Shown in pieces: positions 3,787 through 42,326 of a stretch of 64,000 nucleotides of DNA. Position 1 is the stretch's first letter; each line of letters begins with the position of its first letter. Origin of the DNA: Acidobacteriota bacterium (GTDB lineage Bacteria; Acidobacteriota; UBA890; WLXD01). The position numbers and the translations under genes are program-made. The DNA lies in contig CAXWPL010000004.1 of NCBI GenBank assembly GCA_963666215.2, positions 736,001 to 800,000 of the forward strand, given 5' to 3'. Below the pieces are notes generated by a model. The model made no database searches. It was not told the origin of the DNA and saw nothing but the letters and a program-made list of their open reading frames with translations.

Positions 3787-5547
3787 CTACTCCAGGTCGG
3801 GAGTCGTGGGTGTTGCCATCGCGGCGCCCGGCTCGGCAGCCGACTCGGCGGCCGGCTTCGCCTTGATGCCGCCAACCGCCTTCCACGCCACCGCACCCTC
3901 GAACTCCCAGGTGTGCGGCAGGCGCGCAACGCCAACATCGCCGTAGCGCGAGTTGACTCGAAAGCTGTACAGCCCGCGGTGGTAGTCGTACGGCGTGCCA
4001 TCGGCGCCGTGGGTCGCGACGTCGAGATAGTAGGTGCCTTGAACCAGGCTGAGCGACGGGATGACAAAGCGAATCGTAGCGTCGCCATCGAGGGCCCCGG
4101 CCTTGAAATCCTCGATATCCGTGTTGGTGCCGTAGCAGGAAACGCCGTTGGCGTTGAACAGGCCGAGGCCAAAAACGAAGTCCCCCGTCGGCTCCGCGGC
4201 GCTGACCAGCATCTCGATCGTCATCTCGTCGCCGCTGTCGAAAACGTGGCGCGGTCGGCCATTGCCATCGAGCAGACGAACGCTCTCGATAGCCACGCTG
4301 CGATTCCCCCACCGGCCTGGCTCATAGGGGTTGTCGATGGACGCGTCTGCTGTGGTGTCGGTGGTGACAGCGGGGTCGGCGGTCTCCCTGGTCTCCCCGG
4401 TCTCGGTGCTCTCGGTGCTCTCGGTGCTCTCGGTGCTCTCGGTGCTCTCGGTGCTCTCGGTGCTCTCCGTGCTCTCGGTGCTCTCGGCGCTCTCCGTGAT
4501 CTCGCTGGTTTCGGTGGCTCCCGATGTCTCTCGCGCCTCCGACCCGCCCCGGTCGTCAGAAAGTCCGTCTTCTGCGGAGTCTGCGCCCGTGGGCTCGTCG
4601 GAAACTGCCGCGGTGTCGCCAGCATCGCCGGCCTCGGCCTTCGCCGCCCTGGCCACGTCGCCCGACCCACCGGTGGCGTCAGCGATCCGCCGACGTTCCT
4701 CCGTGGCCATCTCTCGATCTACATGCTCCCCTACCCAATCGAGGTAGGCGTCGACCACGCGCATCGGGTCGCCCACCATCTGGACCTTGCCGGCGTGAAT
4801 CCAGGCAACGCGGTCGCAGAGGACGCGGACGGTCTCCATCCCATGCGTAACCAGCAGGATGGTCTTGCCACGGCGCTTGAACTCGCCGATCTTGTCGAGG
4901 CACTTGTGGATGAAACCCTCGTCGCCAACGGCGAGCACCTCATCGATCACGAGGATGTCGGGCTCGACATGAATCGCCACCGAGAACGCGAGGCGCATGT
5001 ACATGCCCGACGAGTAGTTCTTCACCGGATGGTCGATGAACTCCTCGAGCTCGGCGAACTGCACGATGCGCTCGTAAAGTTCCTCGATTTCGGCGCGGCT
5101 CAGCCCCAGCATGACGCCGTTGATGAAGACGTTCTCGCGCCCGGAGATCTCGGGGTGGAAGCCGGCGCCAAGCTCGATGAGCGCCGAGATCTTGCCGTCG
5201 ATCTCCACCCGCCCCTCGGTGGGCTTGGTGGTGCCAGCGATCAGCTTCATCATGGTGCTCTTGCCGGCGCCGTTGGCGCCGATGATGCCGAACGTCTCGC
5301 CGTGAGCGACGTCGATGGTGGCGCCCTCGAGCGCCGTGAACACCTCGTCGGGCCGCAGGATCTTGAACAGGTTGCCGCCGACGAAGGCGCTCTTGAGCGT
5401 CAGAAAACGATGCGACTGCGCGAAGCGCCGGTAGCGCTTGGTGACGTCGACAAGACGAATCGCCGGCTTGACAGGCTTGGCCTTAGCGGCGACAGCGGTC
5501 GACGCCGGTTGCGGAACGGCGCCGTCGGAAGAGGAGGCGCGCGGCAT
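3787..5547 (-). CDS. ABC polysaccharide exporter ATP-binding subunit (Wzt-like) with C-terminal carbohydrate-binding domain
   Basis: GANGAGKST, YSSGMYMRLAF, IDEVLAVGD; Wzt-C-like tail; start set at ATG 5547 overlapping the upstream permease stop (ORF-track N-terminal extension rejected). Confidence 0.9.
   Translation of the reverse strand: MPRASSSDGAVPQPASTAVAAKAKPVKPAIRLVDVTKRYRRFAQSHRFLTLKSAFVGGNLFKILRPDEVFTALEGATIDVAHGETFGIIGANGAGKSTMMKLIAGTTKPTEGRVEIDGKISALIELGAGFHPEISGRENVFINGVMLGLSRAEIEELYERIVQFAELEEFIDHPVKNYSSGMYMRLAFSVAIHVEPDILVIDEVLAVGDEGFIHKCLDKIGEFKRRGKTILLVTHGMETVRVLCDRVAWIHAGKVQMVGDPMRVVDAYLDWVGEHVDREMATEERRRIADATGGSGDVARAAKAEAGDAGDTAAVSDEPTGADSAEDGLSDDRGGSEARETSGATETSEITESAESTESTESTESTESTESTESTESTESTETGETRETADPAVTTDTTADASIDNPYEPGRWGNRSVAIESVRLLDGNGRPRHVFDSGDEMTIEMLVSAAEPTGDFVFGLGLFNANGVSCYGTNTDIEDFKAGALDGDATIRFVIPSLSLVQGTYYLDVATHGADGTPYDYHRGLYSFRVNSRYGDVGVARLPHTWEFEGAVAWKAVGGIKAKPAAESAAEPGAAMATPTTPDLE
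4402..4500. repeat. About 11 copies of a 9-bp tandem repeat (CTCGGTGCT), encoding (EST)n in the Wzt linker
   Basis: Directly visible tandem array; three units are degenerate. Confidence 0.95.
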
Positions 5548-6583: not shown

Positions 6584-7783
6584 CTACTGCACCGGAATCG
6601 GAACCGCGGCTCCAGCCTCGATTCGGAACATGCGGTGGAACTTGCGGACATCGCCGTTTGCGTCGAAGTCCGTGGCGCCGGTAGCGCCCTCGTATGGCGA
6701 CATGCTGTTGAGGTAGAAGCGGAGCTCTCGCGGGTTCACTCCGTTCTCCTGGATCGCGAGCGCCAGCGTCCGCACGGCGTCGTAGGCATGCGCCGCGTAG
6801 GCATCGGGGTCGGGGCCGTACTTCTGCCGGTAGGCCGCCACGAAGGAGCGCACGGCCGGCTCGTCACTCGTGGGGATGAACGACGGCTGGGGAAAGACCA
6901 GGCCCTCCACCGCAGCACCGCCGGCGGCCACCAGCTGGTCGGCCAGGATCGCGCCCGTGCCATATAGCGGCGTGGTGATCCCCGCATCGCGGATCGCCAT
7001 CGCGACGGCAGCGGTGTCGGCGATGTAGCCGGCGATGTAGATCGCCGGAGCGTTGATACTCGCGAGATCATCGATCTGGGCCGACAAGTCGCCAACCTCC
7101 GGGGGATAGCTCACCTGCCCCGCTTCGCGGCCGCCGATTGCTCGGAAACGCTCGATGAACGCGTTCTTGATGCCGATGCCGTACTCGTTCTGATTGGCAA
7201 TGATGGCGGCCTCGCGCAGCCCCTGCTTGTTGTAGATGAAGTCGGCTGTATTGATCGCCTCGAGCTCGTCGCTCGGGAAGTTGCGATAGATGTAATCGCC
7301 GGCCGAAGAAAGCTTGGGGCTCGAGGTGGCGGGCGACATGAGGATGATCTCCGCCTCCTCGAACAACGGCGCGATGGCCAGCGTCAGTTCGCTAATATCG
7401 GCGCCGATCACTGCGGGCACGCCGGCGGCGATAAGCTCCCGAGCCGCTTCGGTGGCGCGCGTCGTGCTGCTGGCGGCGTCGCGGATATCAATGACCAGGG
7501 GCAACATCGTGGCGTTGTTGACGTTGATCCCGCCGGCCGCGTTGATCTCCTCTACCGCGAGCTCGATGCCGTTCTGGACCGAGCGCCCGTACGGCGATCC
7601 GACGCCCTGCAACGAGACGATCGCGCCGAGCCGGACCTCGGTGCTTTCCGCACAGCCGGCCCCCGCCAGGGTGAGTGCGACGACCAGCGACCCGAAGACG
7701 GCGATCCGTCGGCTGCACCTGGTTGCTGTTGCCAAGCAGCAGCTGCCCGCTCCGAGCGTTCTCTTGAGCCTGTCGCCGTTCAT
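6584..7783 (-). CDS. ABC transporter substrate-binding lipoprotein (LivJ/LivK-like)
   Basis: LAGAGC lipobox-like signal, GIELAVEEINAAGGI, YIYRNFPSD, AAHAYDAV; start uncertain. Confidence 0.85.
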   Translation of the reverse strand: MNGDRLKRTLGAGSCCLATATRCSRRIAVFGSLVVALTLAGAGCAESTEVRLGAIVSLQGVGSPYGRSVQNGIELAVEEINAAGGINVNNATMLPLVIDIRDAASSTTRATEAARELIAAGVPAVIGADISELTLAIAPLFEEAEIILMSPATSSPKLSSAGDYIYRNFPSDELEAINTADFIYNKQGLREAAIIANQNEYGIGIKNAFIERFRAIGGREAGQVSYPPEVGDLSAQIDDLASINAPAIYIAGYIADTAAVAMAIRDAGITTPLYGTGAILADQLVAAGGAAVEGLVFPQPSFIPTSDEPAVRSFVAAYRQKYGPDPDAYAAHAYDAVRTLALAIQENGVNPRELRFYLNSMSPYEGATGATDFDANGDVRKFHRMFRIEAGAAVPIPVQ

Positions 7784-23386: not shown

Positions 23387-24748
23387 ATGGACCTCTGGGG
23401 GCGCACCCTCGAGCGCATCGCTTCGACCCTCGATGGACAGACCTACGAGACCTGGTTTGGCCCCACCGCGATGGCCAGCTGCAGCGATGGAACGTTGCTG
23501 GTGGGGGTGCCGAACAACCTTTTCCGCGATTGGCTTTCTGAGAACTACGGGCAGCTCATCCGCGACTGTCTCGAGCAAGAGACCACGCAACCTCTGTGTG
23601 TGGAGTTCATCGTTGCTCGCCGGGCAGCTTCCGCACCGAGTGTCCGTGACGACGAGAACCAGATACCGAGCAAGCTCGCGCCACCGCTGCTACAGCCCTC
23701 TAGCGTGCCCGCGCCGCGCCCGTGCCCGCCGACCTTCAACCCCGGGTACACGTTTTCCAGCTTCGTGGTCGGAACCTCGAATCAGCTCGCTCACGCCGCC
23801 GCCCGAGCGGTCGCCGAGAGCCCTTCAAAGGCCTACAACCCGCTGTTTCTCTATGGTGGCGTAGGTCTCGGAAAAACTCACCTGATGCTCGCGATTGGGC
23901 AGCACATCCGCGAGCAGTGGCCCGATCTGAGGATTGTCTACCTCTCCTCAGAGCGCTTCATGAACGAGTTGATCAACTCGATCCGCTACGACCGAACTCA
24001 TGAATTCCGCGATCGCTATCGGAACATCGACGTCCTCTTGATGGACGATATCCAGTTCCTGGCCGGCAAGGAACGAACCCAGGAGGAGTTCTTCCACACC
24101 TTCAACGCTCTACACGAGTCTCAGCGCCAGATCGTCGTCACCAGTGACGCGCCTCCTCACGCGATCCCTACACTCGAAGAACGGCTGCTCTCGCGATTCC
24201 AGTGGGGTCTGCTGGCCGACATCCAAGCGCCCGATCTGGAAACCAAGATCGCAATCCTCAAGAAAAAGGCGGCGGCGAAAGCTCCTTCCCTGCATCTTTC
24301 GGACGACGTTCTTCTTTTCGTCGCCAACGGCAGCCAGAACAACATCAGAGAGCTCGAAGGAGCCCTCATCCGGCTGATCGCCTACGGCTCACTCGAGAAT
24401 CGCGAGCTCACCCTCGAGATGGCCAAACACGTGCTTCGCGACACCCTTCGCGCGCACGAGCGCGCAGTTACCATCGAGGACATCCAGCGACGTGTCACCG
24501 AGTACTATGGGCTCCGCCCAGGCGAGCTGAGCACGCGAACGAACGCGAGGCGAATCACTCACCCGAGGCAGGTAGCAATGTACTTGTCTCGGCAGCTAAC
24601 GGGCCATTCAACCACGGAAATAGGGCGCGCCTTCGGAGGAAAGCACCACACGACAGTTCTGCACTCTCTCAAGAAGATCGAGCGCAACATCTCTCTCGAC
24701 GCCGAGCTCCAGCGGGGGATCAATACGCTTCGTGACGCCCTTCTCTAA
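23387..24748 (+). CDS. dnaA: Chromosomal replication initiator DnaA
   Basis: YNPLFLYGGVGLGKTHL, DDIQFLAGKERTQEEFFHTFN, PRQVAMYL, HHTTVLHS. Confidence 0.99.
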   Translation: MDLWGRTLERIASTLDGQTYETWFGPTAMASCSDGTLLVGVPNNLFRDWLSENYGQLIRDCLEQETTQPLCVEFIVARRAASAPSVRDDENQIPSKLAPPLLQPSSVPAPRPCPPTFNPGYTFSSFVVGTSNQLAHAAARAVAESPSKAYNPLFLYGGVGLGKTHLMLAIGQHIREQWPDLRIVYLSSERFMNELINSIRYDRTHEFRDRYRNIDVLLMDDIQFLAGKERTQEEFFHTFNALHESQRQIVVTSDAPPHAIPTLEERLLSRFQWGLLADIQAPDLETKIAILKKKAAAKAPSLHLSDDVLLFVANGSQNNIRELEGALIRLIAYGSLENRELTLEMAKHVLRDTLRAHERAVTIEDIQRRVTEYYGLRPGELSTRTNARRITHPRQVAMYLSRQLTGHSTTEIGRAFGGKHHTTVLHSLKKIERNISLDAELQRGINTLRDALL

Positions 24749-31444: not shown

Positions 31445-33916
31445 CTAGGAGGGCGGCGCGGAGAGACCCTCGAGCTTGGCGAAGCGCGCCAAGAGTTCCT
31501 TGATGCCGGCCCGCGGGAAATCGACGGTGAGCTTGAGCCGTTCACCGGATCCCTTGGTCTCGGTGATGCGCCCGGGGCCGAACTTGGGGTGGAATACCGG
31601 TTTGCCGGACGTCAGCTCGGCAGCTTCGAGCGCGATCCCCGTGCCGCGGGCGTTGGCCGGCACGGGTGCTGTGATTCGCGGTGGTCTGCGGCCACGTGCG
31701 GGGCGCCGCGGAGCGCTTGCGGCCGTGCGAGCCGAGGAGCTACGGAACCCGCCACGACCGCGTGTCGATCGTTCCGCGCTGCGAGCGGCGAACCCAGGTT
31801 CCTCGCGATATTCGACCAGCCGCGAATCGATTTCGCGCAGGAACCGGGAGGGCTCCTGGAGACGTTCAAGACCGTGAATTCGCCGCAGCCGCGCGGTTGA
31901 AAGAAACAGGCCTCTGCGAGCACGCGTCATGGCTACGTAGGCCAGGCGGCGCTCCTCTTCGACCTGCCCCTCCTGAACCGAGCGGCCGTTGGGGAACAGC
32001 CCCTCGTCGAGGCCGACCACCCAGACGGTATCGAACTCGAGGCCCTTTGCAGCATGGATCGTCATGAGAGACACGCCGCGGCGGGCGCCAGACTGCGATT
32101 CGGCATCGGAGATCAGCGCGGCACGGTCGAGGAAGCGGCCCAACAGCTTGGGGTCGGCCATGGTGGTGCCGCCGAGCTCCGCCGCCGACGAGACGACCTC
32201 GTCGAGGTGGGCCAATCGCTCGAGCGGGTTGTCGGCGCTGCGCAGCGACTCTCGCAGGCCGCTGGCGTCGGCCACCTGTTCCACCAGCTGAGACAGTGTT
32301 GTCTGGCCAAGGCCGCCGCCGAGCGTGACCACGATCTCGTGAAAGCGAACCAGGCCGGGCACCGCGGATGCAGGACAGCCAATCGCGCGTAGCGCGGCCT
32401 TGGCGTTCGCCCCAGGCTCGTCGGAGCCAGGGCCGTCGGCCGCGCGCAGGATTTCGTCGAGAGCTTCGAAAGCCCCGACCCCCGGCCGCCACCGCGCGAG
32501 CGCACCAATCGTCGCCGGCCCAACGCCCGGCATCTGGCCGGCTGCTCGCGCGAAGGCACCCTCGTCGGGCGTGACCAACAGCTTGAGCCAGGCAAGCAGA
32601 TCGCGGATCTCGGCACGCCTGTAAAAAGTGGGCCCACCCACCACACGAAACGGCACCCCGCGACCCGCCAGCTCTTCTTCGAGAGGTCGCGACTGGGCGT
32701 TCGTTCGGTAGAGCACGCCGAGGTCGTTCGCCGTTACCCCGGCGGCCATTCTCGAGGCGATCCCTTTGGCAACCCAGATCGACTCGCTGCGCCCGCTGGC
32801 GCATTGCAAGACCTGGGGGAGGGGACCCTCGACGTCGGTATGGAGCGCCTTGCCGAGGCGCTCTCTGTTGTGACCAACGAGAGAGTTGGCCGCAGCCAGA
32901 ATCGCACTCGTGGATCGGTAGTTGCGCTCCAGGCGGATCACCGTGGCACCGGGGAAATCGCTCTGGAAGTCGAGCACGTTGGCGATCTGGGCGCCGCGCC
33001 ACCGATAAATCGACTGGTCCTCGTCGCCGACGACCATCAGCGATCCACTGGCGGGCGAAGTCGAAGCCGACGGCGATGAGTCGCCTCCGGCGGCAGAATG
33101 TTCTGCTGGGCACCCGGGCGAGGGCATGGCGCTCAGAAGCGAAAGTTGCGGTTCGTCGTCCTGGTCGGGGCCCTCGCCGTGTGACGCGGCGGGGGCCGGC
33201 GCTGACCCCATGAGCTCGCGAAGCAGTCGGTACTGCAGGCGGTTGGTGTCCTGGTACTCGTCCACGAGCAGGTGCAGGAACCTGCCGCGCAGGAGCTTCC
33301 CGAGCGCGGGGTTCTCTTGCAGCGCGTGCAGTGGGCCGAAGAGCAACTCGTCGAAGTCAACGGCTCGCCGCCGCCGCAGCTCCGCGCGGTACGCAGGCCA
33401 GATGCGCCCCGCCAGTCGCTGCTCGAACTCGTAGCCGGCCACGTCCCAACCGGCCGGGTCTTCGAGCGCGTTCACACCACGACTACAGCGCTCGAGGAGG
33501 CGCCGCGGAGGCACCGTTTTCGGGTCGATTTCCAGCTCGTTCTGACAACCGCGCCAAACCGCAAGCGACTCCGAGCGGTCGTAGATAGCGAAGCCGGGAG
33601 GCGGCGCGCCCGGGCCGCCCGCGGCGTCGCGAAGGATGCGGAGTCCGAGCGCGTGGAACGTCAGCAACCAGAGGTCCGCCGGTTCTTCGCCGAGCAGCTC
33701 GAAAACCCGCTGCCGCATCTCCGCCGCCGATTTGTTGGTGAAGGTCAGAGCACAAATCGACGCCGGCACTGCACCCTGCTCGATAAGCCAGGCAATCCGG
33801 TGCGTGATAACCCGTGTCTTGCCGGAGCCAGCGCCAGCCAACACCAAGCAAGGGCCACCCGAGTGCGTGACCGCCGCGTGCTGTTCGGGGTTGAGAGCCT
33901 CGGATATCGATGACAT
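31445..33916 (-). CDS. UvrD/PcrA-family SF1 DNA helicase
   Basis: LAGAGSGKT, TFTNK, VDEYQDTN, VGDEDQSIYRWRGA, NYRS, TIHAAKGLEF, EERRLAYVAMTRA; C-terminal Tudor-like HPKFGPG. Confidence 0.95.
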   Translation of the reverse strand: MSSISEALNPEQHAAVTHSGGPCLVLAGAGSGKTRVITHRIAWLIEQGAVPASICALTFTNKSAAEMRQRVFELLGEEPADLWLLTFHALGLRILRDAAGGPGAPPPGFAIYDRSESLAVWRGCQNELEIDPKTVPPRRLLERCSRGVNALEDPAGWDVAGYEFEQRLAGRIWPAYRAELRRRRAVDFDELLFGPLHALQENPALGKLLRGRFLHLLVDEYQDTNRLQYRLLRELMGSAPAPAASHGEGPDQDDEPQLSLLSAMPSPGCPAEHSAAGGDSSPSASTSPASGSLMVVGDEDQSIYRWRGAQIANVLDFQSDFPGATVIRLERNYRSTSAILAAANSLVGHNRERLGKALHTDVEGPLPQVLQCASGRSESIWVAKGIASRMAAGVTANDLGVLYRTNAQSRPLEEELAGRGVPFRVVGGPTFYRRAEIRDLLAWLKLLVTPDEGAFARAAGQMPGVGPATIGALARWRPGVGAFEALDEILRAADGPGSDEPGANAKAALRAIGCPASAVPGLVRFHEIVVTLGGGLGQTTLSQLVEQVADASGLRESLRSADNPLERLAHLDEVVSSAAELGGTTMADPKLLGRFLDRAALISDAESQSGARRGVSLMTIHAAKGLEFDTVWVVGLDEGLFPNGRSVQEGQVEEERRLAYVAMTRARRGLFLSTARLRRIHGLERLQEPSRFLREIDSRLVEYREEPGFAARSAERSTRGRGGFRSSSARTAASAPRRPARGRRPPRITAPVPANARGTGIALEAAELTSGKPVFHPKFGPGRITETKGSGERLKLTVDFPRAGIKELLARFAKLEGLSAPPS

Positions 33917-34348
33917 CGCGGTTGTGAGTTCACCGTCGGGACAGGTCGTGAGTCGCCGTCGGGTTAGGTGGAGCGGTGGGTCGCGAGCCGCTGAGACTAC
34001 CGGCCGGTCACCGTCGCCGCTCGACACCCCGACCCGAGCGCGTTGGCCGGCGTCGCACAGCCGATAGGCGACGCGGCGTTCTGCAGACCGTCGACGAAGC
34101 GTCTGCGTCGCCGAAATCGCGAGAAGACCTTCGAACGAAGGCTATGGTCAGTCGCAACAGGAAAGCAGGATCGCCGGCACGCAAATAAATTGCGTTATAG
34201 TGGCCAAAACTGTGCCTGGATGGCCACCAGTGGGTGGTGTCCTAGTTTGAAATAGTTTGGTGCGCGCGAGCAGGTTCCGAAGCCTGCGCGGCAGGCGGAG
34301 AATCGGCTCTATAGAGGAGGCGAACCGTCGGCAGGCTGAACGACGTAC

Positions 34349-35290
34349 CTAGCCATCGTCGACCACCCCCGCTTCCTGCTGCACACGCTTCTGAGAGCGT
34401 TCCACAGCCCGCTTGGCCTTGCGTAGAACTAGGTTTATCCAGCTCTCAAAGTCCTCGTACTCCTCGACCGAGCGAAGCGCGGGCCACTGGAGAACCGCCT
34501 GACCGCTCTCAAGCGTGAACACGTCCTGGCTGTTGCCTTCGACCATTGGTGATCCTCCTCTACCCCCGGGGGCAGGATTCAACGGCGGCTTCAGCAGCAG
34601 TGCGGGCTTCTGTCCAGACACCAGTTCAGCGACCGGAATTCCCGTAGTGGTCCCTTCCACTTGCGCGTGGTCGCTGTCATAGAAACTGATGATCTTTCGT
34701 CCGCCTTCGGGGAACTGCAACACGCCGCCTTGTTCCCACTGTACGTAGTCTCCGACCGAGAAGTTGTGGCTGTCGGAGGAGTCTCCATCATCGTCCGACA
34801 GGCTATCAGACTCGGCCGGCCTGGCGAAAGCGAAGGTGGCCTTAAACTGCTTCAGGAAGTCCTTTGCGCCCTTATCAGTGAAACTCTTGTCGCTGCGCAA
34901 CCAGAAACGCACATTGACGTCCGAAGGCAGAGCGTCACTGTAGTTCTTGAGCATTTCTGCATGAATCGGGGGCTTCTCTGCTGCCTCGCGGATGAGCCGC
35001 GCCTTGTCCTCAGAGTCGGGACGCTCATCAATAATGATTCGCACCGCAAGGTCGGTCAGGCGCCCCTTCCGCTGATCTCCTCTTCCCTCATGATCCAACA
35101 GCCCGAACTTTTTCAGAGCGGCGAACGCGAGCCTTCCCCCACTGCTCTTGGGGGAGTAGTTCCAATGCCCGAGGATCGCCAAGACCGGCGCAGCATGCTG
35201 TTTCTCTTGACCGTACAGTGTTCGGGCCAGCTTAAGTGCTTCCTTTAGATCAATCGCAGGGTAGCTGGGGCTCCGTCCCTTCTTTGCCAT
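34349..35290 (-). CDS. Hypothetical cargo protein of element A (possible N-terminal winged helix)
   Basis: About 313-aa open frame with globular composition, inside the TIRs; fold is inferred only. Confidence 0.75.
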   Translation of the reverse strand: MAKKGRSPSYPAIDLKEALKLARTLYGQEKQHAAPVLAILGHWNYSPKSSGGRLAFAALKKFGLLDHEGRGDQRKGRLTDLAVRIIIDERPDSEDKARLIREAAEKPPIHAEMLKNYSDALPSDVNVRFWLRSDKSFTDKGAKDFLKQFKATFAFARPAESDSLSDDDGDSSDSHNFSVGDYVQWEQGGVLQFPEGGRKIISFYDSDHAQVEGTTTGIPVAELVSGQKPALLLKPPLNPAPGGRGGSPMVEGNSQDVFTLESGQAVLQWPALRSVEEYEDFESWINLVLRKAKRAVERSQKRVQQEAGVVDDG

Positions 35291-35411
35291 GATTTCCACA
35301 CTCCATTTGTCCGAACCAGATGAAGACTAGAATACGCGACAAAGAAGAAGACTTCAAGACTCGCAGTCTTGCTGTCTGGAGACAAAGCGACTAAAGTGTG
35401 TCCATCGTCAA

Positions 35412-35506
35412 TAAGAAAGCCGGAAGCGGTTGTCGCCGCTTCCGGCTCAAAGCCTTTTCCCACCGTCGCTAAACAGGAGGAACGATGCATTTCTACATCG
35501 GCTATT
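35412..35506 (-). ncRNA. Putative outward-facing small RNA of element A
   Basis: Extended -10 TGGTACGAT (35520-35512), 5' hairpin CGATGT-AGAAA-TGCATCG, TTCCTCCTGTT, 12-bp terminator stem 35418-35447 with T-tract on the minus strand; paralogue in element B. Confidence 0.5.
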
Positions 35507-35688
35507 GGCCCATCGTACCACGGGGGCCGCCACTACTCCGAGGCCCCGATAAGGGGCTGTTGAACGACCCTAGAAAGCGCCCGGCTCCGCTGCTGTACAG
35601 CTCGGCCGGGCTAGATCCCAACGCGGGCAGAGCCGCACAGGAACCCTCAAAGCCATTGTGGTCCAGCCCGACATCCGGAGCAAGACCG

Positions 35689-36295
35689 ATGGCGAACAAG
35701 CTCTCTCAAGACAAGAAGCGCACCGTGATCTCAGCACTCGTCGAAGGCAACAGCATCCGCAGTATCGAGCGTATGACGGGCGTGCACCGCGACACCATCT
35801 GCCGGCTGCTCGTCCGCGTGGGCGACGGGTGCGAAGCGATGATGCGCGAGCGCTTCACCGGGCTCGACCTGGAGGATGTGCAGGTCGACGAGATCTGGAC
35901 CACTCCCAATCCACTAGGAGATAACCTATCCGTCGCTTCGCTCCGATGGCGTGATCACGATCAACCGTAATCAGTGATCACGTTCCCGTAATGACCGATC
36001 ACGATCACCGAAATACTCAGTTGTGGCCGGAGATCCAGATCCGGAGGCGATCTCCACGTCCTACGTCGAACGACAAAACCTGACGATGAGGATGCACATG
36101 CGGCGGTTCACGCGGCTCACCAACGGCTTCTCCAAGAACCTGCGGAACCTGCGAGCCGCCGTGTCGCTGCACTTCGCCTGGTACAACTTCGTGCGCGTCC
36201 ACAACAGCCTACGAACGACGCCTGCGGTCGTGGCGGGAGTAGCGGACGACGTTTGGTCGATGGACGATCTTCTGGCTTGGGAAGCGTCCTACTGA
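35689..36295 (+). pseudogene. IS1-like DDE transposase, central part lost
   Basis: N-part MANKLSQDKK...QVDEIWT and C-part AGDPDPEAISTSYVERQNLTMR align with the intact copy at 37354-38196; roughly 100 codons are replaced by an IS21 end. Confidence 0.92.
35901..36019. mobile_element. Remnant terminal end of an IS21-family element
   Basis: Three about 20-bp repeats GATCACG(A/T)TC..CCG(T/A)AAT ending ...GAAATACTCA; reverse complement TGAGTATTTCGGTGATCGTGATC, the TG-start multi-repeat end typical of IS21. Confidence 0.75.
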
Positions 36296-36555
36296 TACGT
36301 GCCGCTTGCTTCTCTCACCGAGTGGAGCGTGACAGTCGTTTCATCGAAAGAGTAGTAGACGGTCAACGCCTTGATATCTGGCCACACTCCCGTGGCGATC
36401 GCCCAGATCTCATGATGCGTTTGGTGCCCCTGGGTAGGATCCAGGCAGAGAATCATATGCACCCCCGCCAGCACCTTGTCCAACCTGTTCGGGTTTGGCT
36501 CAAGGTCCCGAAACTCACGCAAGAATCGCGCTGTCTCGTGAATCCTATGCGCCAT
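36289..36555 (-). CDS. Putative toxin (RelE/ParE-like size and C-terminal pattern) coupled to a Panacea antitoxin
   Basis: 88 aa, overlaps the upstream gene by 11 nt; ETARFLREFRDL N-terminus and LTVYYSFDETTVTLHSV C-terminus. Confidence 0.55.
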   Translation of the reverse strand: MAHRIHETARFLREFRDLEPNPNRLDKVLAGVHMILCLDPTQGHQTHHEIWAIATGVWPDIKALTVYYSFDETTVTLHSVREASGTYQ

Positions 36556-37132
36556 CTGTCCCGGCAGCGGCGAGTTCTTGAGCTAGCTGCGCGCCGTAGG
36601 CCGTTTCTTCCTGCGTTAGGGGGCGCTTCGAGATGAAGACGGTTTCGTATGGAATAGTCTCGCCGTTCTCGACGATCTCCCACCCAACGTAACTATGCGA
36701 GAAGGCGCTGACCTCCGCCGCGTCCATGTCTTGGAAGTAATCGATGACATCGTTGACGATGGCGATCTGTTCCCCTGTGAAACCTGACAGGTCAGGGTCG
36801 CGCAGTGCCACAAGTCGATCCTGAACGAAGCCGTAACGCTCGCGGTGCTGAATGGCAGCTTCGCTCTGGTCGATGAGCCTCTTCCGAATCGGCAGCAATC
36901 GACGCGGTGCCGGCCCGCGATCAAGCCGTTGATACTCCTGCTCCGTAATCGCCGAACCGGTTTGTCCGAAGGCAATGAAGTCAGCGTAGAATAAGATCTT
37001 GTTGAGCTTGGTTGCGCCGAACTTCGGATCGTCTTCGGACCGCTCAGCAACGTACAGAATCAGCTCACGTAGCCGTTGGTCTCGTTCATCTGCGGTCAAA
37101 AGACACCCCCTCTCCGTCGTGTGCCCAGACAA
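36545..37132 (-). CDS. Panacea-domain (DUF4065/SocA-like) antitoxin
   Basis: LRELILY, TKLNKILFYADF, ITEQEYQRLDRGP, VSAFSH..W...GETIPYE; start uncertain. Confidence 0.85.
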   Translation of the reverse strand: MSGHTTERGCLLTADERDQRLRELILYVAERSEDDPKFGATKLNKILFYADFIAFGQTGSAITEQEYQRLDRGPAPRRLLPIRKRLIDQSEAAIQHRERYGFVQDRLVALRDPDLSGFTGEQIAIVNDVIDYFQDMDAAEVSAFSHSYVGWEIVENGETIPYETVFISKRPLTQEETAYGAQLAQELAAAGTDGA

Positions 37133-37353
37133 ATGTCTGTCTCACGCACCATCTTATGATCCCACGCGGAAGCCTGTCCTCATAGGACCGAAAATCCGTA
37201 GGGGGTCACGCGAGGTTCTTGCACCACCCCTGCAAAAAGCGAACCAAACTGCGCAGGAGTGACTTTCATAATGGGATACTATCCACCAGTGGGTAGTGTC
37301 CTAGTTTGAAGATCACCGCAACGTAGATTAGCACGATTATTGCCCTCTCTATC

Positions 37354-38196
37354 CTACGCCAGCGAGGGAGTCTCGAACGCCAGCAGATCCCCCAGCGCCC
37401 ACTCGCTGTCGGCAACCTCAGCCACCACGGCGGGAGTGGATCGCAGGCTGTCGTGGATACGGACGAAGTTGTACCAGGCAAAGTGCAGCGAAACGGCGGC
37501 TTCGAGGTTTCGTAGCGACTTCGAGAAGCCGTTCGTGAGCCTCGTGAAGCGCCTCATGCTCATACGCATCGTCAGGTTCTGTCTTTCGACGAAGCTCGTG
37601 GAGATCGCCTCCGGACACGGATCTCCGGCCATAACCTCAGTTGTGCAGCGGCTGACCCTCGGTGGTGAGTAACGTCCGAAGGATGGATTCGTGGCCGAGT
37701 AGCTTTTCGTCTGCGTGGCGTAGTCGATGCCACGGGCCGCCACGACGCCGAGAGCGGCCTTGTAGCCGGTGTAGGCGTCCGTAGTCAGCTGGAACGGTCC
37801 GTCGATCCTACGGGCCAGCTCCGAGATCATCTGATAGGCGTTGTGCCCGTTGCGCTTGCCGACGATCCAATGCGGCACCAACTTGGTTTCGGCGTCGAGC
37901 GCGACGAAGACCCATTGATCGCCATGCTTGGGATTCACGCGCTTGCCTGAGCGAATCACCGTGGCTTGCTTCTTCTTGACGTAGGTCCAGATTTCATCGA
38001 CCTGGAGATCGTCTAGGTGCAGACCGTGGAACCGTTCTCGCATCATGGCTTCGCAGCCCTCTCCGACCCGCACCAGTAAACGGCAAATGGTGTCGCGATG
38101 ACAGCCGGTCATGCGCTCGATGCTGCGGATGCTGTTGCCCTCCACCAGGGCGGAGACGATCATGCGTTTCTTCTCGGGGGCCAGTATGTTCGCCAT
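37354..38196 (-). CDS. IS1-family-like single-ORF DDE transposase (280 aa)
   Basis: N-terminal HTH (EGNSIRSIERMTGCHRDTI); DDE triad QVDEIW / TTDAY / VERQNLTMR; RRFTRLTNGFSK; YNFVRIH. Confidence 0.92.
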   Translation of the reverse strand: MANILAPEKKRMIVSALVEGNSIRSIERMTGCHRDTICRLLVRVGEGCEAMMRERFHGLHLDDLQVDEIWTYVKKKQATVIRSGKRVNPKHGDQWVFVALDAETKLVPHWIVGKRNGHNAYQMISELARRIDGPFQLTTDAYTGYKAALGVVAARGIDYATQTKSYSATNPSFGRYSPPRVSRCTTEVMAGDPCPEAISTSFVERQNLTMRMSMRRFTRLTNGFSKSLRNLEAAVSLHFAWYNFVRIHDSLRSTPAVVAEVADSEWALGDLLAFETPSLA

Positions 38197-38377
38197 CGGT
38201 CTTGCTCCGGATGGCGGGCAGGACCACAATGGCTGTGAGGGTCCGATGCGGTCTATGCCCGCGTCTTGGATCTAGCCCGGTTCGCTGTTCGTGCAGTGGG
38301 CCGGGCGCTTTTTTGGTCGTGGAGGAGGCCCCTTTCGGGGCATGGGAGGCATGGCGGACCCCGTGGTAAGATAGGCA

Positions 38378-38552
38378 AATGACCGATGTGGAAACGCATC
38401 GTTCCTCCTGTTCAGAAGCGGGAGAGCCCCGGCGGGGAATCGAACCCCTATCAACCGGTTTTCAAGGCCGGTGCCCTTTGCCATTCGGGTAACCGGGGCA
38501 ATGTGGTAAGTGGCGGCGACGAGAGGTACCAACTCTCGTCGCCGCTTTTTTT
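38378..38552 (+). ncRNA. Putative outward-facing small RNA of element B
   Basis: Extended -10 TGGTAAGAT 38364-38372, 5' hairpin CGATGT-GGAAA-CGCATCG, TTCCTCCTGTT, 13-bp terminator stem 38513-38545 + T7. Confidence 0.5.
38425..38499 (-). tRNA. tRNA-like element / pseudo-tRNA with UGA (Ser) anticodon
   Basis: Acceptor GCCCCGG/CCGGGGC, D-loop TGG, anticodon arm CCGGC-CTTGAAA-ACCGG, T-loop GGGG-TTCGATT-CCCC; short variable loop, no CCA, two stem mismatches. Confidence 0.65.
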
Positions 38553-39032
38553 CTACGCGCCGTACCTCCGTGCTACGGCCCTGTCGATTCGATACCGACC
38601 GAAGCCGATCTTTTGCACTGCATTGTTATCAACAATACCTAGTCGAGATACTTTCGCGCGCAAAGTAGAGTCGGCAAGATCCGGATTGAACGACTTCGCC
38701 TTCCTGACGATCTCAGCAGACTTCCAGATCCGCTCCGGATCGGACGCCATCGCACGCAACACTGCTTCCTCTGCTGTCGGTGCACTGCTTCCACTGACGA
38801 CTTCCATCAACCCGATCCGTGCATCCCGTGGAAATATTTCACCAAGAGAATCGAAGATTTCACTCGCAAGTTTCAACATATGATGTCGAGTTTGTTGCAC
38901 CGCATGCATTTGACCGGCAATTTTCTGCCTACGGTCGTCTAACTCTTCGAGTTCTGCCTGAAGTGTGCCCTCGTCGTCTGCAAGTTGATGAGCGTCACGG
39001 ATCAGGCGCGTTGCAGTTTCTTTGTCTAGCAT
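38553..39032 (-). CDS. Hypothetical cargo protein of element B (coiled coil + possible C-terminal winged helix)
   Basis: GGAGG RBS, ATG 39032, own promoter TTGACT-16-TATCCT (39080-39053); ends in a wing-like QKIGFGRYRI. Confidence 0.7.
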   Translation of the reverse strand: MLDKETATRLIRDAHQLADDEGTLQAELEELDDRRQKIAGQMHAVQQTRHHMLKLASEIFDSLGEIFPRDARIGLMEVVSGSSAPTAEEAVLRAMASDPERIWKSAEIVRKAKSFNPDLADSTLRAKVSRLGIVDNNAVQKIGFGRYRIDRAVARRYGA

Positions 39033-39206
39033 TTCTGTGCCCTCCGAATCGGAGGATATCACAGTCGGTAGCAAAGTCAAGAAAAAATTCAGGCACAGTT
39101 CGGCCCTCCTAGATCTGGTGTTGAGTGACAGGAAGTGGGTGAGATCGAACGTCGGGTAGTGGTCGAGCATGGGGGTTCTCAAATTAGGACACTACCCACC
39201 AGTGAC

Positions 39207-39290
39207 TTGACAAGCAATGCTTGAATTTCGTACAATCTTTAGATTGTTGCTGATGGACGCCTGTCCCGGCTTGCCGGGCGGGCTTTTTTT
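39207..39290 (+). ncRNA. Sibling sRNA unit 1: sigma70 promoter + about 50-nt RNA + intrinsic terminator
   Basis: TTGACA(39207)-18-TACAAT(39231); GATTGTTGCTG; stem GCCTGTCCCGG-CTTG-CCGGGCGGGC + T7; paralogue at 41945. Confidence 0.7.
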
Positions 39291-39464
39291 GTGCCTGCAG
39301 CGCGGTCCTCAGAGGCCCTTCTGGCCACTTCTTGCGGGCCCGACAACTCGCGGGCCCGACCGGCTCGCAACCGGCTCGGCGTCCTGCAAGACTCGCGTGA
39401 TCCTCACCTCGCAAAACGGCAACCGCCCGGACCCTGGTGTGCCGGAAAGTTCTGGAGAATCTCC

Positions 39465-41783
39465 ATGCCCCGCGTTCTCGCTCGCTCAATCCTCGCGGCC
39501 GCGATGGCACACGTGCTTGTCGCGTCGCCGGCGGCCTCGCAGACCGCCACCGTAGGATCCCAAAGCCCACCGCAGTTGACGCTCGACTCGATGTTCGTCG
39601 ATCGCGCGTGGGAGGCCGACTCCCTGAGCCCGGCGCGGTGGCTCGATGGCGACAGCTACACGACGCTCGAAGCCTCGGTGACGGTGCTCGGCTCCCGCGA
39701 TCTCGTGCGCCACGATGCCGCATCGGGCGATAGCGTGGTCCTGGTGGGGGCGCACGAGCTCCTCCCCGGCTCTGGCGACCAACCGTTGGAGGTCGAGAGC
39801 TACGACTGGTCGCCCGACGGCCGCCAGTTGCTGATCTTCACCAACTCGCGTCGCGTCTGGCGCAGCAACACGCGTGGCGACTACTGGATACTCGACACCG
39901 AGTCGCGGACGCTCGAACGGATCGGCGGCGCGGCGGGCGAGGCGACGTTGATGTTCGCCAAGTTCTCGCCCGACTCCACCCGGGTTGCGTACGTGCGGGC
40001 CAACGATCTGTACATGGAGAACCTTCGGGGCGGCGAGGCCAGTGTGATCACACGCCTCACCCACGATGGCTCCAATCTGATCGCCAACGGCACCTCCGAT
40101 TGGGTGTACGAGGAGGAGCTGGGCGTTCGTGACGGCTTCCGCTGGAGCCCCGATGGCAGCCACATCGCCTTCGGGCAGCTCAACGACTCGGGAGTGCGAG
40201 AGTTCACCCTGATCGACGACACGTCGGAGCTGTACCCGGTTCTACACAAGTTCCCCTACCCGAAGGCCGGCGAGACCAACCCGGCCGCGCGCGTCGGGGT
40301 GGTGCCGGCAGCTGGCGGCGACGTGCTCTGGGTTGACCTCCCCGGGGACACTCGCGACAACTACGTGGCGCGCATGGAATGGGCGGGCGGTCCCGACGAG
40401 CTCGTCATCCAGCAGATCGATCGCCGGCAGAACAACAACCGCGTGTTCCTGGCCGACGTGCGCACGGGTGAGGCAAGCCAGGTGCTGCTCGACACCGACG
40501 AGGCCTGGGTCGATGTCGTCAACGATTTGCGCTGGCTCGACGGGGGGCGCGCTTTCACGTTTGTGTCGGAGCGCGACGGCTGGCGACGCGTGTACCGAGT
40601 GGCGCGCGACGGCAGCTCCATCGAGCCGCTGACCCCGGCCGGCGTCGACGTGATGGGCATCGAGTTTATTGATGTTGATCCAGGTGGCGGCTGGCTGTAC
40701 TACGCCTCGACCTCCGATGCCACACAACGCTACTTGCACCGCGTGCCACTGACTGCGGACGACGAGATCGTGGCGACGGCGCTTACTCCCACTCGTCTCG
40801 GCGGCACGCATCGCTACGACATCGCACCCGGCGGTCGTTGGGCGTTCCATACATGGTCGAGCTTCGAAACGCCCCCGCAGGTAGCGCTGGTCGAGCTGCC
40901 CGATCACCGTACGGCGCGCGTCCTCGTCAACAACACTGCGCTGCGCGACCGTTTCTCCGCGCTCGAGCGGCCGCCAGCCGAGTTCTTCCGCGTTGAGGTT
41001 GAGCCCGGCGTCGAGCTCGACGCGTGGGTGATCTATCCCGACGACTTCGATCCGGCGCTCAGCTACCCGGTGCTGTTCCACGTGTACGGAGAGCCCGCCG
41101 GTCAGACGGTGCTCGACCGCTGGGGAGGCAGGAACTTGCTCTGGCACCACCTCGTGGCTCAGCGCGGCTATGTGGTCATGAGCGTCGACAATCGCGGCAC
41201 GCCATCGCCGCGCGGCCGCCAGTGGCGGAAGGTCGTTTACGGCGAGGTGGGCACCCTGGCGGCCAAAGATCAGGCCGCCGCGGTCCACAGAATTCTCCAG
41301 AATCGCCCGTACATCGATCCCACCCGAGTCGGCATCTGGGGCTGGAGCGGCGGCGGCTCGATGACCCTCAACGCCCTGTTCCGCTATCCCGATGTCTACG
41401 CCACCGGTATGTCGGTGGCGCCCGTTCCCGACCAGCGCTACTACGACACCATCTACCAGGAACTCTACATGGGAACGCCGCAGAACAACCCCGACGGCTA
41501 TCGGAACGGCTCTCCGATCACCTACGCCGACCGCCTCGAGGGCAATCTTCTCCTCGTACACGGCACCGGCGACGACAACGTCCATTATCAAGGCACCGAG
41601 GCGCTGATCAATCGGCTCGTGGAGTCCGGCAAGCCGTTCTCGATGATGACCTACCCGAACCGCACACACGCCATCCGCGAAGGCGCCGGCACCACACGGC
41701 ACCTGTACGGGCTCCTGACTCGCTATCTCATGGACAACTTGCCGGCCGGGCCGACCGCGCTCCGCGGCAAGGACCCATCTTGA
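39465..41783 (+). CDS. S9B dipeptidyl-peptidase IV family protein, secreted
   Basis: Signal peptide, DWVYEEE, YPKAGETNP, GWSGGG nucleophile motif, DDNVH, H of NRTH. Confidence 0.95.
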   Translation: MPRVLARSILAAAMAHVLVASPAASQTATVGSQSPPQLTLDSMFVDRAWEADSLSPARWLDGDSYTTLEASVTVLGSRDLVRHDAASGDSVVLVGAHELLPGSGDQPLEVESYDWSPDGRQLLIFTNSRRVWRSNTRGDYWILDTESRTLERIGGAAGEATLMFAKFSPDSTRVAYVRANDLYMENLRGGEASVITRLTHDGSNLIANGTSDWVYEEELGVRDGFRWSPDGSHIAFGQLNDSGVREFTLIDDTSELYPVLHKFPYPKAGETNPAARVGVVPAAGGDVLWVDLPGDTRDNYVARMEWAGGPDELVIQQIDRRQNNNRVFLADVRTGEASQVLLDTDEAWVDVVNDLRWLDGGRAFTFVSERDGWRRVYRVARDGSSIEPLTPAGVDVMGIEFIDVDPGGGWLYYASTSDATQRYLHRVPLTADDEIVATALTPTRLGGTHRYDIAPGGRWAFHTWSSFETPPQVALVELPDHRTARVLVNNTALRDRFSALERPPAEFFRVEVEPGVELDAWVIYPDDFDPALSYPVLFHVYGEPAGQTVLDRWGGRNLLWHHLVAQRGYVVMSVDNRGTPSPRGRQWRKVVYGEVGTLAAKDQAAAVHRILQNRPYIDPTRVGIWGWSGGGSMTLNALFRYPDVYATGMSVAPVPDQRYYDTIYQELYMGTPQNNPDGYRNGSPITYADRLEGNLLLVHGTGDDNVHYQGTEALINRLVESGKPFSMMTYPNRTHAIREGAGTTRHLYGLLTRYLMDNLPAGPTALRGKDPS

Positions 41784-41944
41784 AACCCCGGTCGTCGGCC
41801 TGTCTGTGCGGTACGAGGCCTGATAGCTGCGGGCCGTCGTGAATATCCGGCTCTTGGTCGGAAAAAACCGCGGGCCGAGACGTCTCGACTGCAAACGATA
41901 TGGTCACAAGAGCGTACAGGTGTCTTACTGAACGTTATAGTGAC

Positions 41945-42028
41945 TTGACAACAGGGGCCAGAATTTCGTACAATTTTCTGATTGCTGCTGGTTATCGCCT
42001 GTCCCGGGTCGCCGGGCGGGCTTTTTTT
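41945..42028 (+). ncRNA. Sibling sRNA unit 2: sigma70 promoter + about 50-nt RNA + intrinsic terminator
   Basis: TTGACA(41945)-18-TACAAT(41969); GATTGCTGCTG; stem GCCTGTCCCGG-GTCG-CCGGGCGGGC + T7; no credible plus-strand gene follows. Confidence 0.7.
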
Positions 42029-42326
42029 GCGTCCGATTTGAACGCCACGGCCGCCCCTGCGGCGACGGTTTGGCGACGCGTGCTCGGGGCCCCAGGGCCT
42101 CCTCTGGGGCCTGGTGCCCACGCGGAGCTCGGGGACCTCCCCTTGACTGTCTAAGGAGCGTTTGGCGACGAGCGCCGGTACCGGCGCGAGGGCGTCGCCA
42201 TCCTGGCTGGCGGGCCAACCGATCGCGGTCCGGCGTGGTGGGAACCGGTGTGGAGCGACGTGCGGCATGCGGCGCGAGGGCTGCGTCGACATCCGGTTGC
42301 CCTACTCGACCGTTGTTGGGCTCGCG

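Follow-up and report, generated by a model that had tools for sequence, protein, structure and literature searches.

Two cargo-carrying IS1-related elements stacked on one 8-bp target in an acidobacterial genome: a probable case of insertion at the end of a resident relative

How two different mobile elements came to occupy exactly the same 8-bp target is the question raised by a locus of an Acidobacteriota bacterium (NCBI GenBank assembly GCA_963666215.2, contig CAXWPL010000004.1, positions 736,001 to 800,000 of the forward strand; this whole stretch of 64,000 nucleotides is called the window, and positions refer to it). Two insertion sequence (IS)-like elements, A and B, stand there back to back between copies of the octamer CACCAGTG. 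A preliminary description, made from the sequence of the window, had proposed two independent insertions that duplicated the same octamer, through either sequence-specific targeting or targeting of a relative's end. With a probability of about 0.78, we consider the insertion of B to be a case of a family-wide tendency toward the ends of resident relatives, mostly with exact re-use of the resident's duplication, and not of octamer recognition.

The octamer occurs four times in the window (24139, 34225, 37284 and 39197), a count unremarkable in itself (mean of 1.63 in shuffled sequences, four or more copies in 9 of 100 shuffles); the significance is carried by the placement of the copies rather than by their number. 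At up to three mismatches, an 18-bp end of the type GGTAGTGTCCTAGTTTGA was found at three places (34233, plus strand; 37292, plus strand; 39179-39196, minus strand), compared with a mean of 0.02 in the shuffle control, in which three matches were reached in 0 of 100 shuffles, and all three ends touch a copy of the octamer directly, as previously described. Element A covers 34233-37283 (3051 bp) and element B 37292-39196 (1905 bp), meeting in a junction of the order end, 8 bp, end, which in a relaxed genome-wide scan was the sole one of its kind in the 4.65-Mb assembly. The ends and octamers of the stack are as follows:

34225-34232 (no strand): first copy of the octamer CACCAGTG, left target-site duplication of A
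34233-34250 (+): left terminal inverted repeat of A, GGTGGTGTCCTAGTTTGA, one mismatch compared with the B end
37266-37283 (-): right terminal inverted repeat of A, decayed, GATAGTATCCCATTATGA when read inward
37284-37291 (no strand): second copy of the octamer, spacer of the abutting ends, being A's right duplication and the target re-used by B
37292-37309 (+): terminal inverted repeat of B, GGTAGTGTCCTAGTTTGA, beside the 3' end of the transposase gene
39179-39196 (-): far terminal inverted repeat of B, GGTAGTGTCCTAATTTGA when read inward
39197-39204 (no strand): third copy of the octamer, right-hand target-site duplication of B

The right end of A falls outside the GGTAGTGTCCTAGTTTGA type at three mismatches or fewer (13 of 18 positions shared with the B end), and the earlier statement that each octamer abuts an end of this type holds for the three other ends and fails here. 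Its tip is mutated to GATAGTA, departing at positions 2 and 7 from GGTAGTG; the three matching ends of the window have GGTAGTG or GGTGGTG tips. The sequence at 37266-37283 is nevertheless a decayed yet true element end. This end and its octamer are repeated directly, over 26 nt and with 81% identity, by the far end of B and its octamer, and the stretch 37229-37287 has 79% identity with the terminus of a family relative in another genome (G006), which ends in GGTAGTGTCCCATTATGA. The transposase genes lie on opposite strands (A plus, B minus), both pointing at the junction, and are related and diverged as had been stated, with approximately 82% identity in protein over the parts kept by A and approximately 78-79% in DNA. 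Comparison of the open reading frames (ORFs) and their families also bore out that the passenger genes of A and B are entirely different. The G+C content of the A/B stretch is 58-59%, that of its surroundings 64-66%. A 14-nt inverted match (34208-34221 and 39087-39100) was taken as chance.

The state of the locus in natural samples was read from Logan contigs of public runs, i.e. from contigs rather than reads. Those of runs X5 and X10, which come from different studies, cover the whole stretch, and in each run one contig bridges both junctions of B (37232/37262-39225); the assembly itself may derive from the sample of one of the runs with the whole A/B stretch. The stack is not an assembly artefact, because contigs from two studies bridge both B junctions, and this disposes of the mis-assembly that the preliminary description had allowed for. 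The depth of the B contig is 6.9 in X5 and 5.9 in X10, compared with 12.6-16.1 for A and the flanks, B thus reaching approximately 40-50% of the flank depth. Moreover, a contig of X10 with a depth of 11.3 joins 37273 to 39187 and omits 1913 bp, equal to B (1905 bp) plus 8, with 13 letters at the joint fitting either side. Because of the reduced depth of B and the contig omitting exactly B plus one octamer, B is a discrete unit present in part of the population, in which an A-only allele coexists with the A+B allele. In X5, B has half depth, but no B-skipping joint is listed, and in runs X1 and X2 (share of 0.05-0.15 for X1-X4) scattered pieces were found, mostly of A-internal repeat and transposase-like sequence, with no empty site. 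The B-less allele that contains A supports the earlier claim of two independent insertions at one octamer, and the simplest reading of the locus is that A arrived first and B later, into the right-hand duplication of A.

A and B appear to be two distinct members of a large IS1-related, cargo-carrying insertion sequence family, whose ends start with GGTAGTG, whose DDE transposase is encoded by one ORF and whose target duplications measure 8 bp. At least 556 relatives of the B transposase were confirmed among the 572 candidate stretches listed from a genome collection, in many phyla; the 80 loci kept (43-54% identity) belong to Alphaproteobacteria, Acidobacteriota, Verrucomicrobiota, Chloroflexota, Actinomycetes, Planctomycetota and others. 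Within these 80 loci, a recognisable pair of ends was found for 62 elements, 51 of which have a perfect 8-bp duplication directly outside GGTAGTG, and one relative (L091) has a duplication of 9 bp. The 51 elements are 1985-5350 bp in length, usually with the transposase near the right end and the cargo between the left end and the transposase. Because relatives carry other 8-bp duplications directly outside GGTAGTG, the octamer CACCAGTG is not part of the element end, contrary to a possibility considered earlier. A weak consensus, S-A-N-N-N-T-Y-S, is shared by the 51 duplications (S1 in 36, A2 in 24, T6 in 24, Y7 in 40 and S8 in 40), and a G stands ten bases outside the element in 34 of them.

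The closest relative of the B transposase (89% DNA identity) is encoded in G006 by an element without a matching duplication at its flanks. This element (L013, 4664-7488) combines a B-like transposase with an A-like right end, and a second, GGTAGTG-led 17-mer (7488-7505) abuts it, which suggests mosaicism or rearrangement between family members.

The evidence for a tendency toward relatives' ends comes mainly from a metagenome scan for a second, outward-facing end placed 0-12 bp after a family tip (exact CACTACC...GGTAGTG required), which gave at least 120 loci and, after removal of identical ones, at least 114 distinct junctions. Chance would give a flat distribution over the 13 spacer lengths; of the 114 listed junctions, 87 have a spacer of 8 bp, eight one of 7 bp and four one of 9 bp, and each of the other lengths occurs at most three times. 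Of the 87 listed 8-bp junctions, 64 join different elements, as their two 18-bp ends agree at no more than 15 positions, and another 13 have identical ends and might be tandem copies. The octamers in these 87 spacers vary and share no more than the weak consensus given above, and the junction sides that could be typed among those listed comprise 11 transposase-proximal and 9 distal ones. For 22 junction sides the outer end was also present in the contig (at least 15/18), and there the outer flank equals the spacer in 13 (8/8) and nearly so in three (7/8), compared with at most 5/8 and 0 of 22 equal for a control 8-mer taken 20 bp further out. Insertions of the family cluster on the ends of relatives and peak sharply where the duplication is re-used exactly. 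With approximately 10 resident ends in approximately 5 Mb, random insertion would produce such a contact about twice in a million events; the stacking tendency is strong compared with chance but uneven among genomes. The earlier suggestion that a relative's end is targeted fits these counts (at least 87 of 114 listed junctions with an 8-bp spacer, and 13 of 22 sides with spacer and outer flank equal), and of the shared target consensus and arrays that were to be sought among relatives, the former proved to be weak only and the latter recurrent.

Individual loci resemble the window closely. Two of them, L127 and L155, have three identical octamers, as in the window, and were formed in situ and not moved as composites, because all three octamers are identical. 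In L181, two junctions 118 bp apart share one octamer, making a three-unit stack; the predicted arrays do exist, with three units (L155, L181). Stacked units in the metagenomes are often short and without transposase. The newcomer in L048 entered the tip itself, duplicating GTGGTAGT, composed of 2 bp of the resident's duplication and the first 6 bp of the resident's end, and L084 has a 5-bp spacer with flanks that do not match. In the unselected sample of genome loci, the end of a relative was found 2, 5 or 8 bp outside in 3 of 62 elements, the 8-bp case being L055, where the neighbouring end is decayed, as in the window.

In L055 (4363-4412), a 4.3-kb element contains, 34 bp inward of its left end, a third copy of its duplication CATATCTT. 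Of two further family ends, both decayed, one lies at 4428 and the other 8 bp outside; the locus looks like a nest of several insertions. Genome G152 has eight junction sites, seven with a 9-bp spacer and the eighth with a spacer of 3 bp. Pairs of its junctions stand approximately 100 bp apart with a near-identical 9-bp spacer, TGCCCTCAG or CGCCCTCAG (C17:137-267, C32:115222-115352 and C35:25159-25283), and may represent a mini-element stack copied as a unit, or contigs that are repeats of one locus.

The sequence of events at the window locus would be the following. Element A would have entered CACCAGTG first, at a site with a UvrD-like gene on one side and a small promoter-terminator unit on the other, and would then have decayed, the middle of its transposase gene being lost to another element and its right-end tip mutating. 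Finally, an intact B would have inserted with an 8-bp staggered cut placed exactly on the octamer at the right end of A, producing the third copy. In this last step, the resident end presumably recruits the incoming transpososome, via transposase bound there or via a host-induced bend, and strand transfer would fall at the boundary of end and flank and 8 bp away from it, as in the inverted-repeat targeting of IS30 and IS911. The outcome would be arrays of back-to-back cassettes with unrelated cargo.

Several points weigh against this explanation. We infer the recruitment by the resident end, no transposition having been observed, and binding of the right end of A by the transposase of B is not assured, because that end differs from the B ends at 5 of 18 positions, two of them in the tip. 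Local sequence has some influence on targeting, given the weak consensus and the G at +10 (34 of 51). The B-less allele could in principle result from a precise loss of B between the 26-nt repeats (37266-37291 and 39179-39204), and the contig table leaves its tip letters unseparated between the A type and a hybrid. The at least 120 metagenome loci were listed by exact motif only and have no denominator, and in 6 of the 22 sides the outer flank fails to match the spacer (5/8 or less). Furthermore, four of five end-rich genomes (G190, G150, G237 and G309, with 76 exact end-motif matches) contain no junctions, and none of the 80 genome loci has an 8-bp junction of two well-preserved ends.

The main rival to targeting of the resident end is a site-determined hot spot, i.e. 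an octamer with preferred surroundings, chosen independently by two family members, the resident end being irrelevant. The weak and roughly palindromic family consensus speaks for it, as CACCAGTG fits four of the five informative positions, and so does the position of the site just upstream of the promoter-like TTGACA-17-TACAAT; hot spots of IS1 in Escherichia coli are, moreover, said in the title of a 1987 paper by Gamas et al. to share host-factor binding with the IS1 ends. After the first insertion, however, each copy of the octamer retains one native flank only, so that the site is no longer the same. Newcomers are also found in the tip of a resident (L048), and those at other spacers (1-7 and 9-12 bp) cluster on the end, which implicates the end rather than the original site. 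The 87 listed 8-bp junctions, with their varied octamers, would need a separate extreme hot spot each. We regard such a hot spot as unlikely.

Much less probable still is that A and B did not insert one after the other at one site, the stack having arisen by joint arrival, recombination, duplication or mis-assembly. The outer ends at 34233 and 39196 agree at 16 of 18 positions and could act as those of a composite, with the outer and inner octamers as direct repeats; because of this agreement, the proposed transfer of A+B as one composite by the transposase of B would be possible in principle. However, a composite move would give an outer duplication unlike the inner spacer, and here all three octamers are identical. 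The transposase genes differ too much in DNA for a tandem duplication and face each other, and contigs of independent runs bridge the junctions while a B-less allele exists. No moved stack was seen among the stacks examined, in which both outer ends were found in two loci only (L127 and L155). Least credible of all is that this lineage of transposases recognises CACCAGTG, or a consensus close to it, as a specific target, an idea suggested by the three identical copies and by the near-palindromic octamer (6 of 8 positions self-complementary): CACCAGTG was used in 0 of the 51 perfect 8-bp duplications of relatives, two other family elements of this genome duplicated AGACAGGC and GACGATGA, the closest relative in G006 is flanked by GGCAAACG and CATACGAG, and the fourth CACCAGTG of the window, at 24139, is unoccupied.

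The gene content of the two elements is as follows:

34349-35299 (-): A cargo, 316-aa ORF, conserved hypothetical protein without a match in Pfam, NCBIfam or PADLOC; its atlas look-alikes are unnamed clusters of ~315 aa
35469-35688 (+): leader 5' of the A transposase, conserved with the B leader 38200-38415 and partly with an element at C1 ~510850
35689-35901 (+): N-terminal fragment of the A transposase, corresponding to residues 1-82 of the B 291-aa ORF (82% identity)
35892-36019 (+): foreign 128-bp piece in place of the middle of the A transposase (~residues 83-198), end fragment of an unrelated ~2.4-kb repeat
36020-36295 (+): C-terminal fragment of the A transposase, corresponding to residues 199-286 of the B ORF (82% identity)
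36289-36555 (-): A cargo, ORF of 88 aa that overlaps the Panacea gene and, by position only, is a candidate toxin partner; no family match
36545-37132 (-): A cargo, antitoxin-like protein of 195 aa with a SocA/Panacea domain (PF13274, 53.9 bits, E 4e-14)
37354-38199 (-): B transposase, intact, 281 aa from ATG, predicted IS1-type DDE with N-terminal helix-turn-helix
38424-38499 (-): B tRNA-like gene, 76 nt, Ser anticodon TGA, without a long variable arm, just upstream of the transposase leader
38553-39032 (-): B cargo, 159 aa from ATG (209 aa from an upstream TTG), conserved hypothetical protein

Judged by its broken transposase gene, A is dead; B is intact. The 128-bp piece in A has copies of 99-100% identity at C4:300227, C1:485773 and C2:356306. 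Its source, the ~2.4-kb repeat, is represented in the genome by one full copy, one relative of 79% identity and two solo ends of 164-189 bp (C1:483450-485905, C2:757783-760227, C4:300166-300354 and C2:356271-356434).

The B transposase scores 26.2 bits with the Pfam model DDE_Tnp_IS1 (PF03400; cut-off 24.1), and its top NCBIfam match is the IS1 model NF033558, with 64.2 bits, under the cut-off of 100, followed by IS6 (32 bits) and by IS481 and IS1595 (28.8 bits each). In an alignment with 11 relatives, residues D68, D94, D141, D159 and E205 are invariant, together with a ERQNLTMRMSMRR block; an invariant block reads ERQNLTMRMSM.R. The B transposase contains an ERQNL...FSK block, which we take to resemble that of IS1 InsB. 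PADLOC and NCBIfam gave no match for any of the four cargo ORFs of the window, whose atlas look-alikes are unnamed clusters with weak leads to DUF5343 (0.81) and HARE-HTH (0.89, 19% of members).

The region of approximately 200 bp 5' of the transposase start is ~79% conserved between A and B (35469-35690 and 38200-38415). Starting ~45 bp further upstream, ~110 bp of A (35426-35533) are 85% conserved with a third element (C1:510843-510952), whose transposase is only 41% identical. This stretch begins with AGGAGG-ATG and a short ORF (MHFYIGYWPIVPRGPP / MRFHIGHLPILPRGPP), and could represent a leader peptide or regulatory RNA.

The tRNA-like gene of B matches the Rfam tRNA model with 31.8 bits (gathering threshold 29), which was the only, weak, Rfam match over 33900-39500; the 91-nt tRNA-Ser(tga) of the genome sits elsewhere. 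Further elements of the family carry tRNA-like genes on the transposase strand (L013 5444-5519, L049 4524-4597, L062 5837-5911 and L074 5305-5390), located directly 5' of the transposase or leader in B, L013 and L049, ~90 bp upstream in L062 and ~600 bp upstream in L074, and their anticodons vary (TGA, GGA, TGC, a 4-base one and TAA). With default settings, ARAGORN detected a tRNA-like gene in 2 of 62 upstream regions compared with 0 of 56 control regions. Such a gene may serve as a processing signal between the cargo and transposase transcripts.

Concerning the surroundings, dnaA (Bac_DnaA domain, 239.7 bits) was found at 23738-24217, ~10 kb from the stack, which agrees with the placement given earlier relative to the origin of replication, the origin (oriC) itself not having been located. 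On its right side the stack is adjoined (39205-39291) by a promoter-like TTGACA-17-TACAAT, ~50 nt and a hairpin-plus-T-run terminator, and the insertion point lies 2 bp upstream of the -35 box. The unit (39207-39291) has no Rfam match, and a paralogue of 81% identity is located 2.7 kb downstream (41937-42029). The decamer CGTTATAGTG stands immediately beside ACTTGACA in the paralogue; its copy at the stack occupies 34194-34203, ~30 bp (34204-34232) before the elements. The two units may form a pair of small RNA genes. An orthologous empty site was not readable in the 40 nearest genomes of the collection, which belong to other genera (~68-70% identity in the flanking genes) and in which the UvrD-like and peptidase genes are not neighbours.

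To assess the kind of cargo carried by the family, ORFs of 90 aa or more that do not belong to the transposase were collected from the 51 elements (152 in total), and 150 of them were scanned. Families recognised include (i) GmrSD, in four elements; (ii) ClpP-like or SDH proteases, in five; (iii) N6_N4 methylases, in three, accompanied by Mrr or inactive-endonuclease domains in two of the three; (iv) AIPR, RloB with an AAA_21 ATPase, another AAA_21/AAA_15 ATPase and Schlafen/AlbA_2; (v) Fic, MazF, SocA/Panacea, DndB, NYN and a STAND NTPase; and (vi) helix-turn-helix proteins, among them several fusions to a Peptidase_M78 domain. Most of the 150 scanned ORFs had no family match, and many short ORFs among them are probably not genes. 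Cargo with a named family is mainly of the restriction, abortive-infection and toxin-antitoxin kinds, with which the predicted Panacea pair of A is consistent.

If the preference for relatives' ends is real, it explains why unrelated cassettes stand back to back and suggests how defence and toxin-antitoxin genes come to cluster, and such arrays would bear a signature, i.e. two ends separated by exactly the length of the duplication. We tentatively propose, at slightly less than even odds, that this multi-phylum family homes to the ends of its relatives, even dead ones, a decayed copy becoming the landing pad for arrays of defence-type cassettes. If true, this would be a transposase-driven route to defence islands, with an outcome comparable to that of integrons and IS26 arrays. 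The window offers a clean test case, with an intact B, variable within a natural population, beside a dead A.

Among known systems, IS1 is probably the nearest in its transposase. Members of the IS1 family have GGnnnTG tips and 8-9-bp duplications (ISfinder, reviews); three tips in the window and those of the relatives fit GGnnnTG, 8-bp duplications were found in 51 of 62, and the motif block is probably of the IS1 DDE type. The family differs from IS1 in having one uninterrupted 281-aa ORF instead of insA/insB' with a -1 frameshift, in model scores that are marginal or under the cut-off, and in the length (2-5.4 kb) and layout of its elements, most of the cargo lying between left end and transposase. 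IS1 subgroups with a single ORF are known, so the single ORF is compatible with IS1 membership. Searches of the open-access literature yielded no description of the family, of its defence-type cargo or of end-targeting in relatives of IS1.

Insertion sequences with passenger genes form a recognised class, termed tIS in the sections of PMC7986276 on them. The window elements resemble this class in carrying, inside their inverted repeats, a 316-aa ORF and the Panacea pair (A) or a 159-aa ORF and a tRNA-like gene (B). With integrons the likeness is only in the outcome, an array; no integrase was found in 33500-40000, and each unit has its own DDE transposase, or a remnant of it, and its own inverted repeats. 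IS26 (IS6 family) preferentially joins next to a resident relative by targeted conservative cointegration and builds cargo arrays, as outlined in the part of PMC7986276 devoted to it. In contrast, each unit here retains both of its ends, insertion duplicates the 8-bp target once more, and the partners have diverged from each other.

The closest parallels in targeting are IS911 and IS30. For IS911 (IS3 family), the relevant passages of PMC9333248 and PMC7986276 describe transposase-dependent insertion beside an end-like sequence, by end capture. Insertion beside a sequence that resembles an end is the feature shared with the present family. IS911 uses copy-out-paste-in chemistry and makes 3-4-bp duplications; it belongs to another family and was studied on plasmids in E. 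coli, not as natural arrays of cargo elements. IS30 has, in the account excerpted from PMC9333248, a dual specificity, for hot spots or for sites next to its own inverted repeats, producing new junctions between inverted repeats that keep a strict left-right orientation. Here, too, insertion next to a resident inverted repeat results in an end-to-end junction, with a spacer of the system's own duplication length (2 bp in IS30, 8 bp here and 9 bp in G152). Unlike in IS30, the transposase is IS1-like, the partners are mostly different elements (64 of the 87 listed) and not copies of one IS, and there is no exclusive left-right orientation, the window junction joining two transposase-proximal ends; there is also no sign of circle or dimer intermediates, and the junctions persist in genomes instead of being hyper-reactive. 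The best reading is that end-proximal targeting like that of IS30 and IS911 operates here in an IS1-related, cargo-carrying family. End-adjacent insertion, known from laboratory work on IS30, IS911 and IS26, would thus be met as a natural and recurrent pattern in a different and very widespread family of cargo-carrying elements.

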